Below, piece by piece: positions 256-32,211 of a DNA stretch of 64,000 nt. The DNA lies in contig METB01000001.1 of assembly GCA_001771185.1 (NCBI GenBank), positions 503,200 to 567,199 on the forward strand. Reading direction: 5' to 3'. Position 1 is the stretch's first letter, and the number at the start of each line of letters is the position of its first letter. The stretch is from a candidate division Kazan bacterium RIFCSPHIGHO2_01_FULL_44_14. GTDB taxonomy: Bacteria > Patescibacteriota > Kazan-3B-28. Position numbers and translations under genes: made by a program. Under the pieces are notes generated by a model, which saw only the letters and a list, made by a program, of their open reading frames with translations, was not told the origin of the DNA and ran no database searches.

Positions 256-1158
256 ATGCAGAAGTCACTTACCGCAGGCCAGATCAAGCAGATCTTGGGC
301 TTTCTGCGTGACGTGCTGATCGTCATCGGTCTGGGTTTCTACCAGGCTCAGGCTTTCATCAACGACAAGACCCGAGTGGACAAGTTCAAGGAGGACTTCA
401 AGGCCCTTCTGAATGCGAGCCTCAAGGTCAACCCGTACATCAAAGAACGGGTCAAGCAGGCCTGGTTCTATCCAAAGAACTGGAAGGTCAAGAATGTCAC
501 CGAGCAACTCGCCAAGCTCACCGAACTCTTCCCGGGTATCGACCTGTCACAGGTCGAGGCTCTGGTTGCCAAGGTGACTTTGCAGAAGTGGCATGACGGC
601 ATCGCCGTTCTGCCCAAGCTCTCGTTTCTGGGACTGCTGTGGGGGATCGCTGATCCCTATGGCAAGGGCTACGGTCTCATCTGCGAGAAGCTGTTCGAGC
701 TGATCGCTGGAAGCCGTGCCTTCCATAACTACCGGGCTGGGCAGATGAACGATCAGTACATTCGCATCATGGAGCAAGTTCGCGAACAGCTGAAAAAGCT
801 GGAAGCGGAAACTCCTGGCGATGTTCTCGTTCTCGCCTTCGACTTCGGCAAGACCTATGCCGGATACAGTCCACGCAACGCTCGCCACGAAGCACTGAAC
901 AACAATCAGCTCCCGCTGATTACCGCTCAGGTGGCGTCCCTTCTGCTGACTATGCCCGACCGTCTCACTGCCTGGGAGCAACTCTTCATCGATTGCTCCG
1001 GCGACGAGTGGGATTGGGACGCTGTTGGCCGCTGGTTGTACTCCGTCTGTTTCCGCTTCGACGACGGCCGGTTGCGCTTCGACAGCGGGAATGCCGACGC
1101 TCCGAGCGACGACTATGGTTCGGTGGTTGCGTCCCTCGGGAGTGTCCCTGGGGTCTAG
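256..1158 (+). CDS. DGR target (variable) protein; its C-terminal ~45 aa are encoded by the variable repeat (VR)
   Basis: 300-aa ORF with RBS agggag upstream. The last 132 nt match the downstream TR except at TR-adenine positions. TR codons in the target frame are mostly AAC, the usual DGR codon. No recognisable N-terminal domain. Confidence 0.75.
   Translation: MQKSLTAGQIKQILGFLRDVLIVIGLGFYQAQAFINDKTRVDKFKEDFKALLNASLKVNPYIKERVKQAWFYPKNWKVKNVTEQLAKLTELFPGIDLSQVEALVAKVTLQKWHDGIAVLPKLSFLGLLWGIADPYGKGYGLICEKLFELIAGSRAFHNYRAGQMNDQYIRIMEQVREQLKKLEAETPGDVLVLAFDFGKTYAGYSPRNARHEALNNNQLPLITAQVASLLLTMPDRLTAWEQLFIDCSGDEWDWDAVGRWLYSVCFRFDDGRLRFDSGNADAPSDDYGSVVASLGSVPGV
1013..1144 (+). repeat. DGR variable repeat (VR)
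   Basis: 132 nt aligning 1:1 with 1479..1610. There are 16 mismatches and every one has A in TR against G/T/C in VR. The last ~38 nt (ctatggttcggtggttgcgtccctcgggagtg) are identical and GC-rich, as expected for an IMH-like 3' end. Confidence 0.85.
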
Positions 1159-1204: not shown

Positions 1205-1225
1205 GGGGCAGACCTAGTCTGCCCC
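1205..1225 (+). promoter_or_regulatory. GC-rich hairpin (ggggcagac-cta-gtctgcccc) ~60 nt downstream of VR, followed by a T-run; DGR-associated stem-loop and/or terminator of the target gene
   Basis: perfect 9-bp stem with a 3-nt loop, then tttctttttg. Confidence 0.5.
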
Positions 1226-1478: not shown

Positions 1479-1610
1479 ATTGGGACGCTGATGGCCACTG
1501 GTTGAACTCCGTCTATTTCAACTTCAACGACGGCCAGTTGAACTTCGACAACAGGAATGCCAACGATCCGAACGACAACTATGGTTCGGTGGTTGCGTCC
1601 CTCGGGAGTG
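1479..1610 (+). repeat. DGR template repeat (TR)
   Basis: same length as VR; all 16 differences are adenines in this copy; lies between target and RT in the same orientation as VR. Confidence 0.85.
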
Positions 1611-2117
1611 TTAACGATTAATGCTTCGCATCCAGCCTCCAAGCATTTTGCCTAGCTCCTGGAGGCTGGATTGCAGAGCTAAGTATTGTTTGTCGCTAAT
1701 AGCTTTCACTTCAAAACTCATTCTTACCAATATCTTAATAAGCTCCAGTTTGGAGTTAGCGTTATGCAGGAGTTGAGTTTTTTCAGTTCCAACTGGTAAC
1801 TTGCTGGCACCCAGCAACAACTCCAGCAACTCAAGGGTTTGATGCGTAACATTCTGACCCAAGGTGTGTTTGTCTGCCTTGGGAAATTTGACTAGAATTC
1901 TGTGAAATTGGAGGAAGAAATCATGAACATGCTGAACAATCGGGATTTGCTCAAAAAGTTGCGGGGGGGGGGGCGTTAAAAGGCTTCTTTTCCATAATGG
2001 GGTGTTTGACCAAATTATTTCGTTAGAAAACTTGCTTACGGCCTGGTACGAGTTTCGGAACGGGAAACGCAGTAAGCCAGATGTCCAAGAATTTGAATAT
2101 ACACTTGAGGATAACAT
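1611..2117 (-). CDS. avd: Avd-like accessory variability determinant (four-helix-bundle, 23S-IVS protein-like family); encoded antisense to target/TR/RT
   Basis: ORF residues ~58-168 (FPKADKHTLGQ...LELIKILVRMSFEVKAISDKQYLALQSSLQELGKMLGGWMRSINR) resemble Bordetella phage Avd and the PF05635 pattern, including the C-terminal LG(S/G)W motif. Its stop abuts the TR 3' end. The annotated N-terminal 50 aa overlap the RT start antisense, so the true start is uncertain. An ATG at 1993-1995 (minus strand) would come into frame if the poly-G tract were 10 nt instead of 11. Confidence 0.65.
   Translation of the reverse strand: MLSSSVYSNSWTSGLLRFPFRNSYQAVSKFSNEIIWSNTPLWKRSLLTPPPPQLFEQIPIVQHVHDFFLQFHRILVKFPKADKHTLGQNVTHQTLELLELLLGASKLPVGTEKTQLLHNANSKLELIKILVRMSFEVKAISDKQYLALQSSLQELGKMLGGWMRSINR
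1963..1973. repeat. Homopolymeric G11 tract (encodes PPPP of Avd) between the divergent avd 5' end and the RT start
   Basis: gcgggggggggggcg read directly from the sequence. Confidence 0.9.
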
Positions 2118-3015
2118 ATTCCAGCTACATCGAGAGCTGGTGGCGGGTACCTACCAGCATACGAGTTATCACCAGTTTCGGCTGAGTGATCCGAAGCCCA
2201 GAATCATCAGTAAGGCGACTGTTCGAGATCGGATTCTCCACAAGGCAATCTACCGAATTCTCTATCCGGCTTTTGACACTACCTTTATATATGACAGCTA
2301 TTCTTGCCGGGACTATAAGGGAACTCATGCGGCATTTCTAAGGACTAAACAGATTGCTCGTAAAGTCAGCCGGAACTACACCGGGCAGTGCTGGGCTCTT
2401 AAATGTGATGTTCGTAAATTCTTCGATAGCGTTGATCATGAAATATTGATGGGCTTACTCGAGGAGAGAATCCATGACGAAAAGATGATGGGTTTACTTG
2501 CGGGAATCATTAGAAGCTTTGAGTTTAAGCCTGGGCAGGGGATGCCGCTCGGTAATTTGACCTCTCAGCTCTTTGCTAATGTTTACCTTGACCCGTTAGA
2601 TAAGTTTGTTAAACACCAGCTCAAGATTAAGTACTATCTGCGGTATGCTGATGACTTCATTTTCTTTGCTGACAACCCAGATGAATTGATGGGTTATTTT
2701 ATAGAAGTGGCCAGGTTTCTAAGGACCGAGCTTAAGCTACAAGTCCATCCCAATAAGACCATACTTCGGAAACTCAAGTGGGGGATTGATTTTGTCGGAT
2801 ATATGGCTTTTGCTCATCATGATTTGCCCCGGAGAAAAACAGCAGATCGGATAGTTAGAGGTTTGGAGAGCTCAATCGCCCAAGAGGACGAGAACGTTGA
2901 AAGCCGGTATCAGTCGTATCTAGGGTATCTATCCCATGTCGATAGTTTCGGGCGAAAAAGCCAGTTAGCTAAGATGATGGGGTATGCCACGGATCCGGCT
3001 GAAGTCAAGAAATGA
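2002..3015 (+). CDS. DGR reverse transcriptase
   Basis: RT motifs including YADD (YLRYADDFIFFA) and the DGR-type motif LGNLTSQ in place of group II QGxxxSP. 337 aa with no endonuclease or large maturase domain. GTG start at 2002. Adjacent TR/VR pair. Confidence 0.85.
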   Translation: MFDQIISLENLLTAWYEFRNGKRSKPDVQEFEYTLEDNIFQLHRELVAGTYQHTSYHQFRLSDPKPRIISKATVRDRILHKAIYRILYPAFDTTFIYDSYSCRDYKGTHAAFLRTKQIARKVSRNYTGQCWALKCDVRKFFDSVDHEILMGLLEERIHDEKMMGLLAGIIRSFEFKPGQGMPLGNLTSQLFANVYLDPLDKFVKHQLKIKYYLRYADDFIFFADNPDELMGYFIEVARFLRTELKLQVHPNKTILRKLKWGIDFVGYMAFAHHDLPRRKTADRIVRGLESSIAQEDENVESRYQSYLGYLSHVDSFGRKSQLAKMMGYATDPAEVKK

Positions 3016-3354: not shown

Positions 3355-4251
3355 ATGGCTATAACAAAACCAATTAAAGGTCGTATTCAGGCTCTTAAAG
3401 CCCAGTATGATGTTCTCCGCAAAGGCAAGGACTCGCTTTTGGTTATGATCGATGAGGCGGAAGTACCGGAGAGTGTCTACAACTCCAACGCTATCGAGAA
3501 CTCGACCCTTACCCTCAAGGAAACTGAAAAAATTCTCTTAGATATGGAAGTTGCTCGAGGTGTTTCTTTGCGTGAAGTTTACGAGGCAAAAAATCTTGCT
3601 CGAGTCATCGACTACATTCGCACCAAATCAAAAGAGACGGAAGTAAACCGTGAGCTTATATTACTCCTGCACCAGATGCTTATCGGTGGTATTGATGATA
3701 AAATCGCTGGTCGCTTTCGTGGCCCAGGCGAATATGTCCGAGTTGGTACGCACATTGCTCCTGCTCCAGAACAAGTGGAGAAATTGATTGCATCTATCAT
3801 TACCGAATACACGAGTGATATGTCTGCTTACTTTTTGGACAAGATCTCCAAGTTCCATTTAGAGTTTGAAACTGTTCATCCGTTTAATGATGGCAACGGC
3901 CGTATCGGACGGGTACTTATCAACTATCAGCTCCAACGGCTTGGCTTCCCGAGTGTCATCGTTCGGGATCGGGAGAAAAAAGAATACTACAAGTCCTTTG
4001 GCGATTATCGTGACGACAAAAACACCAAGACTCTTGGAAAGGTAGTCTATCTTGGGTTGATGGAGTCACTTCATAAACGGATTACTTACCTCAAAGGAGA
4101 CAAAGTTATTCGACTTTCTGAATATACAAAAAGCCACGCCAAGTCTGCTTCGGCAATAACAAACGCCGCGCGTCGACAGAACATCCCTGCTTTCAGAGAG
4201 AAGGGTGTTTGGAAGATTCCGGAGAATTTTAAGTACGAAGCAAGCAAATAA
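3355..4251 (+). CDS. fic: Fic-domain protein (AMPylase family), class II with N-terminal inhibitory motif
   Basis: HPFNDGNGRIGR matches the Fic motif HxFx(D/E)GNGRxxR; N-terminal SNAIEN matches the inhibitory (S/T)xxxE(G/N) motif. Confidence 0.85.
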   Translation: MAITKPIKGRIQALKAQYDVLRKGKDSLLVMIDEAEVPESVYNSNAIENSTLTLKETEKILLDMEVARGVSLREVYEAKNLARVIDYIRTKSKETEVNRELILLLHQMLIGGIDDKIAGRFRGPGEYVRVGTHIAPAPEQVEKLIASIITEYTSDMSAYFLDKISKFHLEFETVHPFNDGNGRIGRVLINYQLQRLGFPSVIVRDREKKEYYKSFGDYRDDKNTKTLGKVVYLGLMESLHKRITYLKGDKVIRLSEYTKSHAKSASAITNAARRQNIPAFREKGVWKIPENFKYEASK

Positions 4252-4369: not shown

Positions 4370-4762
4370 ATGAAAGATAGAGATAGGGTTGCAGGTCTGA
4401 TTATCCAAGATGGCAAATTGTTGCTAGTCACTGGATACGACGCTGACTACTATTGGACGCCAGGAGGGAAGATGGATGGAGGCGAAGACCATGAACAAGC
4501 CCTAAGAAGGGAGATGAAGGAAGAGCTTGGTATTGATATCAGTAATCCCAGGTTCTTTACTCAGATGGAGTACTTCAATTCTCACAGCGAAAAACAACAG
4601 GTGAGCCATTACTACTTAGTGGATTACCGAGGAGAGATTAAGCCTGCTAAGGAGATAACGGGATATAGATTTTTTGGTGCAGAAGAACTCCCTAGGTTTA
4701 CTCATTTTGTAAATGACGACAACCTTCTGTCTAAGCTTTTGTCGGAGAAGCTAGTTCGATAG
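4370..4762 (+). CDS. NUDIX hydrolase
   Basis: Nudix box GGKMDGGEDHEQALRREMKEELGI. Confidence 0.8.
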   Translation: MKDRDRVAGLIIQDGKLLLVTGYDADYYWTPGGKMDGGEDHEQALRREMKEELGIDISNPRFFTQMEYFNSHSEKQQVSHYYLVDYRGEIKPAKEITGYRFFGAEELPRFTHFVNDDNLLSKLLSEKLVR

Positions 4763-4835: not shown

Positions 4836-5804
4836 ATGCCACAAGGATTTTGGAAAAAATTGAAGCGGCCGATTATGGCGCTGGCGCCGATGGCGGATGT
4901 GACTGACGCGGCTTTTCGTAGGTTAATTTCCAAACATGGCAAGCCGGATGTGATGTGGACGGAGTTTGTGTCGTGTGATGGATTGTGTTCAGACAAAGGC
5001 AGACCGATGTTGATGCGAGCATTAAAGTTTGATATATCGGAGCGACCAATTGTCGCCCAGATTTTTGGGAGTACTCCAGAGCATTTTTATACATGTGCCA
5101 AGCTTTTAAAAAAACTGAAATTTGACGGAATTGATATCAATATGGGCTGTCCTGATAAAAAAGTAGAGAAGCAGGGAGGCGGGGCTAAACTCATGCTAAA
5201 TCCAAAATTAGCGCAGGAAATTATTCGGCAAACTAAGCGGGGAGCGGGTGGCTTACCGGTCTCGGTCAAGACCCGGCTGGGTTACAGTCAGCGAAATATC
5301 CAGGAATGGGTAAAGGCGCTAATCGAAACTGAACCAGCGGTAATTATCGTTCATGCCAGAACCCGCAAAGAAATGTCAAAGGTGCCAGCGGATTGGAAGG
5401 CGATTAAAGAGGTTGTACAATTGGTGAAAAAGTCGGGTAAAGATATTTTGGTGATTGGAAATGGGGATGTAAAAAGTGTGGCGGAAGCCAGGCGTCTGGC
5501 TAAAATATCTGGTGCGGATGGGGTGATGGTGGGTAGAGGGGTGTTTGGCAACCCTTGGTTTTTTAACAAAACTAAAAATAAGGTATTACTAAAGGAAAAG
5601 TTGACCGTGATGGTCGAACATGCCAAGTTGTTTGAAAAACTGACTCCCAATCAAAGTTTTTCGATTATGAAAAAGCATTTTAAGGCCTATGTGGCCGGAT
5701 TTGATGGGGCAAATCAACTTCGGGCTAAGTTGATGACGACTAAAAACAGCGCGGAAGTGGCTAAATTGGTCAAAGCTTGGGATTTAGTCATTGTTCGGAA
5801 ATAA
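4836..5804 (+). CDS. dus: tRNA-dihydrouridine synthase (Dus family)
   Basis: N-terminal ALAPMADVTDAAFRRL with a TIM-barrel flavoenzyme pattern. Confidence 0.8.
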   Translation: MPQGFWKKLKRPIMALAPMADVTDAAFRRLISKHGKPDVMWTEFVSCDGLCSDKGRPMLMRALKFDISERPIVAQIFGSTPEHFYTCAKLLKKLKFDGIDINMGCPDKKVEKQGGGAKLMLNPKLAQEIIRQTKRGAGGLPVSVKTRLGYSQRNIQEWVKALIETEPAVIIVHARTRKEMSKVPADWKAIKEVVQLVKKSGKDILVIGNGDVKSVAEARRLAKISGADGVMVGRGVFGNPWFFNKTKNKVLLKEKLTVMVEHAKLFEKLTPNQSFSIMKKHFKAYVAGFDGANQLRAKLMTTKNSAEVAKLVKAWDLVIVRK

Positions 5805-29644: not shown

Positions 29645-30312
29645 GGTTCTGGTATACCAGTAATCTTTTAAAAGGAGTTTAGATAAAGGGTTTCTAGCCC
29701 CGACTTGTCGGGGTGATAGAGTTCCCCCGGTTCCTGGATGTCAGGAGCTGATTTTTATTTGTTCTCCTTTTTGTAAGATTGTCTGGATGTACTTTTCCAA
29801 CCAGTGAGTACTCAGAGAGCTTTAGTTTTGTTTTTCATCTTGTACCGCAAGGTGCAAGTTATTTACCGTTTTGAAATTTGTTTGTTGCAAAACAAATAAC
29901 TTTTCAGAACTTTTTTGAGAGTTTGATCCTGGCTCAGGATTAACGCTGGCGGCATGCCTAACACATGCAAGTCGAATGCCCAGTGCGTAGCACTGGGAAT
30001 GTCAAATGAAAAATGAAAAATGAAAAATGTTGGTGTCTCTGGCTTCGCCAGGATTCCGGCATTTGTAATTTGTAATTTGTAATTTGGTGTTTCCAATGCT
30101 TCGCATTGGTAGCATGGCAGACGGCTGAGTAACGCGTGGGAACTTACCTCTAAGTTGGGTATAACCTGCCGAAAGGCGGGATAATCCCCAATGTGTTCGC
30201 AAGAACAAAGATTTATCGCTTAGAGAGAGGCCTGCGTCCGATTAGCTTGTTGGTGGGGTAATGGCCTACCAAGGCACTGATCGGTAGGGGGCTTGAGAGG
30301 GTGACCCCCCAG

Positions 30313-30357
<45 letters not shown>

Positions 30358-30749
30358 AGGGATTTTCCGCAATGGACGAAAGTCTGACGGAGCAATGCCG
30401 CGTGAAGGAAGAAGGTCTTCGGATTGTAAACTTCTTTTGCTTGGGAAGATTATGACGGTACCAAGCGAATAAGACGCTGCTAACTACGTGCCAGCAGCAG
30501 CGGTAATACGTAGGCGTCGAGCGTTATCCGGATTTACTGGGCGTAAAGCGTCCGCAGGTGGGTTGACAAGTCCGATATTAAATATCCCGGCTCAACCGGG
30601 AAAAAGTGTTGGAAACTGTCGATCTTGAGATTGGGAGAGGCTGATGGAACTTATGGAGTAGGGTTGAAATCCGTAGATACCATAAGGAACACCAAAGGCG
30701 AAGGCAGTCAGCTGGCCCAATTCTGACACTCATGGACGAAAGCGTGGGT

Positions 30750-30783
<34 letters not shown>

Positions 30784-30880
30784 CCTAAACGATGGATACT
30801 AGGCATTGGTGGCATCGACCCCCTCAGTGCCGAAGCTAACGCGTTAAGTATCCCGCCTGGGGAGTACGGTCGCAAGACTA

Positions 30881-30940
<60 letters not shown>

Positions 30941-31445
30941 GTAAGCGGAGCACCTCACCAAGATTTGACATCCTGTTGAAAGCGACTGGAAACAGACGCC
31001 TCCTTTTAGGCAACAGTGACAGGTGCTGCACGGTTGTCGTCAGCTCGTGTCGTGAGATGTACGGTTAAGTCCGATAACGAGCGCAACCCCTATGTTGTGT
31101 TGTATTTTTCACAACAGACTGCCGTGGTTAACACGGAGGAAGGTGGGGATGACGTCAAATCAGCGTGGCCTTTATATCTTGGGCGACACACGTGCTACAA
31201 TGGGTAGGTCACAATGGGTTGCGATGCCGTAAGGCGGAGCTAATCCCACCAAAACTACCCCAAGTTCGGATTGAGGGCTGCAACTCGCCCTCATGAAGCT
31301 GGAATCGCTAGTAACCGCAAATCAGCCATGTTGCGGTGAATACGTTCTCGGGTCTTGTACACACCGCCCGTCACACCAAGAAAGTGAGAAACATCCGAAA
31401 TCCTCTTTTAGAGGCCTAAGGTGGAGCTCATGATCGGGGTGAAGT

Positions 31446-32211
31446 TTAACGGCTTCCCATGCAAGTAATTGCATGGTAAAATCTAACTATATCGGTGAAC
31501 TCCAAAGTAATTTGGACAACGCCGAGGGAAGTTGGGCTAGAAGCTGGGAATGTCCCAAACAAAGCAAGGAAATCTTATCCGACAGAGTCCGTTGACATCT
31601 CAAGAAGTTGAGGTGATTCAAGGGTGTTTACTCGGAGATGGAACACTTTCCAAGTCAGGAAAGAACTATCGTCTGCGAGTTGAACATAAGTCATCACATT
31701 GGGAGTATGTTGAGTGGAAATTTGCCCTTTTAAGGCGGATTTGCATGAACGAACCTAACTATGTGCCGACGCACGCATCATTGCGTTTTGGCTCAATCGG
31801 ACATCCAGAGATTACTGAGATGAGAAGACAATGGTATCGTCCGTATAAACAGATACCGTCAGGATTAGTGCTGACACCGCTAATGTTAGCGGTTTGGTTT
31901 ATGGATGATGGCACCAAGCATCGAGATACAGTTGATGTATCGGTGCAAAGTTTTTCTAGAGAAAACTTGCAGAGTTTAAGAGATCAGTTGTTGACAATGG
32001 GAGTGCAAACTACCATCAACAGTGATTCTAAGGGCAATCGACTATACTTTATTAAAAGTAGTTACCCAGTATTCAAAAAACTTGTTAAACCATACATTGT
32101 GGAATGTATGGCATATAAGTTGCCTTAACCCCGTAGAGACTATACGTTGGCTCCGTCGAAAGACGGATGAAGACATAGTCCGGCACTCTCGGTAACGAGA
32201 GGTAACAGTCG
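31446..32211 (+). mobile_element. Intron inserted in 16S between GGGGTGAAGT and CGTAACAAGG (E. coli ~1495), carrying a homing endonuclease ORF
   Basis: the exon sequence is interrupted exactly within this conserved 3' stretch; contains the LAGLIDADG ORF. Confidence 0.8.
31550..32128 (+). CDS. LAGLIDADG homing endonuclease, intron-encoded
   Basis: two LAGLIDADG-like motifs, IQGCLLGDGTL and LMLAVWFMDDGTK. Confidence 0.85.
   Translation: MSQTKQGNLIRQSPLTSQEVEVIQGCLLGDGTLSKSGKNYRLRVEHKSSHWEYVEWKFALLRRICMNEPNYVPTHASLRFGSIGHPEITEMRRQWYRPYKQIPSGLVLTPLMLAVWFMDDGTKHRDTVDVSVQSFSRENLQSLRDQLLTMGVQTTINSDSKGNRLYFIKSSYPVFKKLVKPYIVECMAYKLP

Follow-up and report, generated by a model that had tools for sequence, protein, structure and literature searches.

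The window, that is the whole stretch of DNA analysed here (64 kb), carries within its first 3 kb a complete diversity-generating retroelement (DGR), with the gene order target-TR-avd(reverse)-RT. Its features are the following:

256..1158, plus strand: DGR target gene, 300 aa, whose 3' end contains the variable region, from the list of open reading frames
1013..1145, plus strand: variable region (VR), 133 nt, from its alignment with the template region (88% identity)
1205..1225, plus strand: GC-rich hairpin followed by a T-run, terminator-like, an inverted repeat of the DGR type, located 3' of the VR
1479..1611, plus strand: template region (TR), from the VR alignment and a blastn self-match
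1611..1962, minus strand: uninterrupted Avd-domain frame 3' of the tract (NF033474, PF22296)
1963..1973: G11 on the plus strand, C11 in the avd sense, the frame-setting repeat, from the sequence and from homologous repeats in 69 loci
1993..1995, minus strand: proximal avd ATG, which opens a 14-codon leader ORF (1951..1995), from translation
1974..2117, minus strand: Avd frame extended upstream, in antisense to the 5' end of the RT gene, from the list of open reading frames
2002..3015, plus strand: DGR reverse transcriptase (RT), 337 aa, GTG start (PF00078, E = 2.7e-24)

The target gene (256..1158) had no family match in Pfam or NCBIfam. When TR was compared with VR, 16 of the 133 positions differed and all 16 corresponded to adenines of TR, the pattern by which a DGR is recognised. 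The hairpin at 1205..1225 was assigned from its position after the VR, because the sites returned by the terminator scan were no more numerous than expected by chance. An Rfam scan of the window detected the 16S rRNA and tRNAs only, and the DGR region was without a match. The RT contains the motif PLGNLTSQ, read directly from the sequence, and an SQ-containing motif is what we take to be the mark of DGR RTs. The protein is identical to NCBI protein A3K24_02535 (P0009) of candidate division Kazan bacterium RIFCSPHIGHO2_01_FULL_44_14, and its closest relatives are all RTs flanked by Avd.

Target, TR and RT lie on the plus strand and avd on the minus strand, as stated in the original prediction, which had been made from the sequence of this locus. 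Its description of the two avd ends is also borne out: the stop codon (1611..1613), said to abut the 3' end of TR, shares the final TR base, and the 5' end, placed within ~10 bp of the RT start, has its ATG (1993..1995) head to head with the RT GTG (2002) at a distance of 6 nt. The antisense orientation of avd had in addition been presented as noteworthy, and in this respect the prediction has to be corrected, since avd was found directly upstream of RT on the opposite strand in 81 of the 81 relatives in which it was located. In one homologue (L002), the avd stop likewise abuts the TR end. An antisense avd is the normal architecture in Candidate Phyla Radiation (CPR) hosts and is already known as B3, which the text of Wu et al. 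2018 (PMC5758913) describes as avd, TR and RT without further accessory genes in CPR hosts. As worded there, B3 probably corresponds to 'TR - reversed avd - RT', and the window cassette shares with it the components, the CPR host and the divergent avd and RT. The main text of the same paper makes no mention of repeats or of broken avd frames.

With the tract set to G10, the Avd sequence scored 86.2 bits against the NCBIfam model NF033474 DivGenRetAVD (cut-off 80, equivalog) and 69 bits against the Pfam family bAvd PF22296 (cut-off 40), and a clade HMM covers positions 1-110. A plain sequence search of the PDB with Avd gave no significant match. The structural model of a homologue (P0002, 59% identical and in frame with only C5) was a predicted four-helix bundle with a pLDDT of 90.5, and its top PDB matches were bAvd from the Bordetella phage (4DWL) and the DGR RNP 8UBE, with an rmsd of 1.7 A and TM scores of 0.77-0.89. 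In this model, the residues encoded by the repeat form a low-confidence N-terminal tail before helix 1. Since the tail is predicted to be disordered, in-frame changes in its length should be tolerated. bAvd is a pentamer that binds and activates the RT, and in the Bordetella DGR the RT is without activity if Avd is absent (PMC6182149). The window Avd is assumed, by homology, to be an RT-binding and RT-activating pentamer as well. The Kazan cassette has the same target/VR, TR, Avd and RT set as the DGR of Bordetella phage BPP-1, with A-specific TR/VR differences and, judging from the homologue model, the same four-helix bundle, and by this analogy its RT would also be expected to need Avd. Unlike in BPP-1, the Kazan avd is situated between TR and RT, on the opposite strand and head to head with RT, its 3' end overlaps the TR end, and its short N-terminal tail carries the repeat. 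To our knowledge, no repeat-based control exists in BPP-1.

The G11 tract is the sole G or C run longer than 7 nt in the 64 kb, where 0.018 runs of at least 11 nt are expected from base composition. The position of the tract (1963..1973) and the fact that the ATG at 1993..1995 is out of frame with the Avd domain had both been predicted, and both are as found in the sequence. As assembled, with G11, this ATG reads MEKKPFNAPPPATF* and ends after 14 codons. With a G10 allele, it reads MEKKPFNAPPPQLFEQIPIV... and gives an Avd of 127 aa that does not overlap the RT gene, which matches the ~127 aa anticipated; G13 is likewise in frame, while G11 and G12 are out of frame. Further upstream in the Avd frame, there is no ATG, GTG or TTG before the ATG at 2115..2117, which lies 116 nt inside the RT gene and opens a 168-aa ORF, so the claim that the frame as assembled has no start codon until one inside the RT gene is also correct. 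On the other side, the tract is located 28 nt upstream of the RT GTG start.

Long G/C runs are error-prone in sequencing, and the possibility had been raised that the length of the tract was such an error; the true tract would then be G10. We compared nine assemblies of the Kazan strain, which come from at least 7 samples or runs and at least 3 assembly sources: beside the window, there are a JGI contig (L001), five ENA assemblies of the MEGAHIT type (L096-L100) and two Logan single-run assemblies (L101, L102). G11 was found in 9/9. This concordance indicates that G11 is the real consensus and not a homopolymer artefact, and the dinucleotide repeats of the relatives described below, which are equally frame-scrambled, argue in the same direction. 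A sequencing or assembly error is therefore hardly credible as the source of G11. The flanks of the tract were identical among assemblies, save that L099 has a single substitution at 3810, within the adjacent Fic gene. RT was identical in the eight contigs that carry it, TR and target matched the window exactly where covered (L096-L100), and VR was identical in every assembly covering it, as far as consensus sequences, in which minority variants may be hidden, can tell. Similarly, no variation in tract length was observed in the nine consensus assemblies of the window strain, which cannot display minority alleles. The 90%-identity protein cluster of the window Avd contains frame-broken gene calls only (83, 83 and 168 aa), and neither a 127-aa form nor an ON allele of this Avd, that is one with the ATG in frame, was found in the protein collection or in public assemblies. 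VR diversity as a sign of ongoing mutagenic retrohoming was absent at the consensus level, which is also what a switch in the OFF state predicts.

The uniform G11, the VR identical over at least 7 samples and the lack of an ON allele among public assemblies would also fit an avd that is dead in this strain, a one-base insertion having been fixed in a mutation-prone run and the DGR having become a relic. Contrary to this, the ~115 codons after the tract are intact and score above the NCBIfam equivalog cut-off, RT, TR and target are conserved among the contigs as described above, and the differences between TR and VR are purely A-specific. Moreover, the same 'lesion' was found at the same site in 54 other elements with intact Avd domains, which independent decay would not yield. 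We consider a dead avd improbable.

The position at which Avd translation starts was then examined in the relatives. The Avd N-terminus is MKQQSFNAPSYVSDIPIVQ in P0002, MTTFNAPPQP in P0006 and MEKSPFNVPPPHESEIGIVQ in L003, and all three are in frame with the domain. The motif M-x-x-x-x-F-N-A-P ahead of the tract is kept in these three loci as well as in L049/50, and the corresponding window peptide is M-E-K-K-P-F-N-A-P. Conservation of this peptide as protein suggests that the proximal ATG (1993..1995) is the avd start and that the frame is broken at the tract. In loci devoid of the repeat, an in-frame ATG is present 3-18 codons ahead of the Avd domain (13/13, and also in P0115, a fourteenth repeat-less locus). 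No Shine-Dalgarno sequence was detected before the proximal ATG of the window, which counts against the switch reading. Another way to obtain Avd would be to translate it unshifted from the G11 allele, starting at the far ATG (2115..2117), which gives 168 aa with a 116-nt overlap with RT, or at an ATC or ATT codon near the domain. The 168-aa ORF is indeed open as assembled, and it was gene-called in one ENA assembly (P0008), but the extension runs antisense to RT codons that are conserved, in most relatives the Avd frame is closed by a stop immediately upstream, and the L003 ATG homologous to the far ATG sits in a different frame. As judged from these alignments, the extension (1974..2117) appears to be open by chance or through constraint on the RT, and the far ATG, which is not conserved, was discarded as a start. 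A start located 3' of the tract was discarded as well, since in 24 OFF loci, among them the window, the stretch from the repeat to helix 1 contains no ATG, GTG or TTG in frame; over all loci, such codons are not commoner in OFF (30/54) than in ON loci (11/15). Translation of Avd without a shift is thus very unlikely.

To place the tract in a wider context, relatives were collected, for which metagenomes supplied 13 RTs and species-representative genomes another 80, nearly all of them Patescibacteria MAGs, and the avd 5' ends of 82 non-redundant RT-avd loci (448 kb) were aligned. A simple-sequence repeat was present between the upstream avd ATG and the first Avd helix in 69 of the 82 loci. In 57 of them it is a poly-C run of 7-15 nt, mostly 9-11, and in the other 12 a dinucleotide repeat, (CA)n, (GA)n or (CT)n, of 12-26 nt; mono- and dinucleotide repeats are the only types at this site. 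Among the long repeats of these 448 kb, 66 out of 71 are at the avd 5' site. The upstream ATG reads openly into the repeat in one frame only in nearly all loci. Relative to the Avd domain, it is in frame in 15 of the 69 repeat loci, shifted by +1 in 26, by +2 in 26 and ambiguous in 2, whereas in the repeat-less loci it is in frame in 13/13 (Fisher p = 8e-8). In total, 54 of the 69 repeat loci are out of frame, and 9 of the 12 dinucleotide loci. The Avd domain itself is uninterrupted in 79 of 83 loci, indicating that these are not decaying pseudogenes. That differing repeat types occupy one and the same site suggests selection for slipperiness rather than for a specific sequence. In addition, CCC is the rarest proline codon in the genome of the window (14%), and the probability that three successive prolines are all encoded by CCC is 0.003, which argues that the homopolymer itself is selected, at the DNA level. 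Three observations of this survey count against a switch, or at least against simple frame switching. ON alleles are fewer (22%) than the 33% of a random phase (p ~0.04). Some related species have an identical OFF register (L016/L021 and L026/L030), and OFF alleles could in these cases be expressed by another route. Finally, 57/57 homopolymers are poly-C in the avd sense, a strand bias that frame switching does not predict.

The original prediction implied that the length of the tract should be heterogeneous in other strains. Strains with several public assemblies were found via identical RT proteins. Beside the window strain, four siblings with a repeat were represented by several assemblies, and such heterogeneity was present in two of these, as C10/C11 (P0098) and as (AG)9/(AG)10 (P0062). 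The strain with RT P0098 shares its aquifer samples of origin with the window. One of its assemblies (L122) has C10 and an intact Avd of 127 aa (MPLTPPPRLNLPILQ...), whereas the frame is broken by C11 in L120 and L121, the three assemblies being identical over 2378 nt apart from the tract. In the P0062 strain, the repeat is (AG)9 in L115, where a 135-aa Avd begins beside the RT start, and (AG)10, with avd out of frame, in seven further assemblies; ~2700 flanking nt are identical, target gene and VR included. The difference of 1 nt in a homopolymer between L122 and L120/L121 could in principle be assembly noise; the repeat of P0062 is a dinucleotide, and therefore this objection does not apply to it. 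The VRs of the ON and OFF assemblies of P0062 are identical, thus no link between switch state and diversification was seen. Comparison of assemblies revealed no length variation in the window strain, P0070 and P0100.

The predominance of OFF alleles can also be explained by recoding, whereby the tract would be a fixed attenuator and slippage of the RNA polymerase or of peptidyl-tRNA-Pro would yield a little constant Avd from alleles that only look OFF. Two variants can be drawn, polymerase slippage on the G11 template and a +1/-1 slip on CCC.CCC.CCC.C at a polyproline stall. On C-runs, tRNA-Pro is able to re-pair in any register, and an OFF majority (54/69), a register that is stable in nine assemblies of the window strain and common to some related species, and Avd domains that remain intact are all in accordance with recoding. 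Nevertheless, the offsets 0, +1 and +2 were found in 15, 26 and 26 loci, meaning that both OFF registers are equally frequent and that in-frame alleles exist too, so that no single programmed direction of frameshift or slippage fits. At the 12 dinucleotide loci a +/-1 shift cannot re-pair, yet 9 of them are out of frame, and DNA-level length polymorphism that toggles the frame was seen directly in the siblings. The programmed frameshift and slippage sites of dnaX and IS elements likewise have a slippery homopolymer between two overlapping frames; unlike them, the CPR avd has no conserved shift direction or flanking stimulators and has dinucleotide repeats and in-frame alleles. Recoding is thus an unlikely main role of the repeat, and leaky recoding might be the reason for the excess of OFF alleles and for the stable G11 of the window strain.

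The G-tract could instead act on the RT strand, by setting promoter spacing for RT, as a 5'-UTR function or as an element of the TR-RT RNA, the avd frame being secondary. In this case, the strand bias would be accounted for, all 57 homopolymers being poly-G on the RT strand, as would the position of the repeat, which always precedes the RT start by a few tens of nt. Repeats in divergent promoters are a known design of phase variation, for instance in the Haemophilus hif locus. But the tract is inside the avd coding sequence, 3' of the conserved start, and the repeat types vary on the RT strand between a G-run, (TG)n, (TC)n and (AG)n. A promoter spanning the tract was sought by a sigma-70 scan, which found no promoter-like site there and sites elsewhere at chance level. 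Furthermore, the RT ORF of three loci devoid of an avd repeat contains (AG)6-10, which a frame switch fits better than a positional RNA or promoter element. A primary role on the RT strand seems quite improbable to us, and as an added effect it is compatible with the explanation that we prefer.

This preferred explanation is that G11/C11 is a slipped-strand contingency tract within the avd 5' coding region, between the ATG at 1993..1995 and the four-helix bundle. On the sequence comparisons presented here, we hold it to be probable. The claim that the avd frame depends on the length of the tract, whose variation could turn Avd and hence the DGR on and off, is supported by four results, all of them comparative: the N-terminal peptide is conserved, the frames are scrambled at a repeat present in 69 loci, the domain stays intact, and the frame toggles between sibling assemblies. 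By slipped-strand mispairing at replication, the tract would gain or lose one unit or more. Lengths of 10 or 13 would place the ATG and the Avd domain in one frame, for an Avd of 127 or 128 aa (ON), while with lengths of 11 or 12 translation would end after 14 codons or run in the wrong frame (OFF). If the inactivity of the Bordetella RT without Avd is valid here, the repeat would control whether the target gene (256..1158) undergoes mutagenic retrohoming. The Kazan population sampled would have its switch OFF (G11), in agreement with the invariant VR; switching in the window strain, where the nine assemblies agree on G11, is extrapolated from its relatives. The same device would operate at the same site over Patescibacterial (CPR) DGRs, with poly-C or (CA)n, (GA)n or (CT)n and most alleles OFF. 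The reversibility and rate of switching, the dependence of the window RT on Avd and the benefit of switching are features that we infer.

Contingency loci of this kind are numerous in some bacteria, C. jejuni NCTC11168 having 29 poly-G/C ones (PMC4965091). As in the contingency loci of Neisseria, Haemophilus and Campylobacter, a long pure mono- or dinucleotide repeat just past the start of avd sets the frame, ON and OFF alleles are mixed in ORFs that are otherwise intact, and repeat length is the sole difference between near-identical genomes. Unlike in those loci, the host of the CPR avd is uncultivated, the gene switched would encode the accessory subunit of a targeted hypermutation machine and not a surface or restriction-modification function, and one whole family of elements keeps the repeat site but not the repeat type. 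Phase-variable switches of mutators and regulators are also known, such as phasevarions and repeat-controlled mismatch-repair genes. With these the proposed switch would share a stochastic, reversible repeat acting on a generator of variation, hence a second-order evolvability, and it would differ from them in that a retroelement performs the mutagenesis and only one target gene is affected, not the whole genome. Phase variation through repeats is well known, as are DGRs, and the link between both is apparently new: in the literature searched, which left the CPR DGR survey of Paul et al. 2017 outside its scope, we found no report of repeats in avd or of DGR phase variation.

More generally, we lean towards the view that Patescibacterial DGRs have a built-in, selected repeat switch, at the avd 5' end, with a few lineages having it within the RT gene instead, by which mutagenesis would be stochastically ON in a minority of cells and OFF in most. 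Little is understood of the regulation of DGRs, or of how they retain a useful variant once found. A switch on an essential accessory subunit would be an answer at the level of the population, with most cells frozen and few diversifying: a mutable switch would control a mutator, and useful target variants would be locked in. The repeat also has consequences for annotation. In most elements, gene callers truncate avd (fragments of 83, 92 or 95 aa) or miss it altogether, and they over-extend RT through the repeat. Surveys that score CPR DGRs as 'avd-less' or incomplete may consequently be biased, and the switch, if real, would account for the many CPR DGRs that seem inactive or avd-less in annotations. 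With such a switch, contingency loci, which are best known from host-adapted pathogens, would also be represented in the CPR bacteria of environmental metagenomes, here mainly from groundwater.

In two related diversity-generating retroelement (DGR) loci, L005 and L006, we observed one C11 tract preceded by two candidate avd start codons lying in different frames (2960-2992, in RT-strand coordinates of L005):

candidate start 1: GTG, reading VEKYAYNAPPP
candidate start 2: ATG, reading MPITPPPP

Because the two candidate starts are in different frames, two of the three possible tract-length classes would be ON at these loci, and the C11 tract as assembled corresponds to the single OFF class. 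In one subfamily (L049, L050, L071, L026, L030, L062 and others), the start codons of avd and RT overlap head to head, on opposite strands of a single near-palindromic stretch, giving the N-termini M-N-Q-F-N-F-H for avd and M-K-I-K-L-V-H for RT. Two of its members, L049 and L050, are 85% identical. While the tract of L049 is C9, L050 encodes the same prolines as GCT CCT CCC CTG; its tract is interrupted and avd is therefore locked in frame. This pair is an example of a switch lost through substitution.

Simple-sequence repeats were also found outside avd. In three related DGRs, an (AG)6-10 repeat is present within the RT ORF (L025, 3040-3059; L057, 3039-3058; L089, 919-930), in the loop preceding the G-x-P-x-GNLTSQ motif, whereas their avd is devoid of any repeat. 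It encodes RERERE, in frame at each of the three loci. This RT-borne repeat may be an alternative switch, located on RT. At another locus, L039, a C10 run is located upstream of the TR (1639-1648), about 820 nt away from the avd start, and avd itself carries no repeat. Finally, the architecture differs in two more distant RT relatives, L014 and L015 (RT 37-40% identical), with the TR directly upstream of RT and neither a detectable Avd nor a repeat.

In the window, three genes follow RT:

3355..4251 (+): Fic/DOC-family gene, immediately 3' of RT
4370..4762: NUDIX gene
4836..5804: Dus gene

The Fic/DOC-family gene stays beside the DGR in the assemblies that reach that far. At 60 nt past the VR, a GC-rich hairpin of nine pairs followed by a T-run is found at 1205..1225; shortly after the VR is the usual place of a DGR inverted repeat or terminator. 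Further away, a full-length bacterial 16S rRNA gene is present (29911..31492). Since no match to 23S rRNA was found anywhere in the 64 kb, the rRNA genes are unlinked. Cumulative GC skew rises steadily over the entire window.

Public gene calls of the relatives were also inspected. At broken repeats, gene callers either truncate avd (fragments of 83, 89, 92 and 95 aa) or make no call. For many RTs of the clade, the called length is 340-412 aa; in the 382-aa RT of locus L003, the single case checked, the additional N-terminal residues come from reading back across the repeat. Such truncated or missed avd calls, together with long RT calls, probably mislead DGR surveys.
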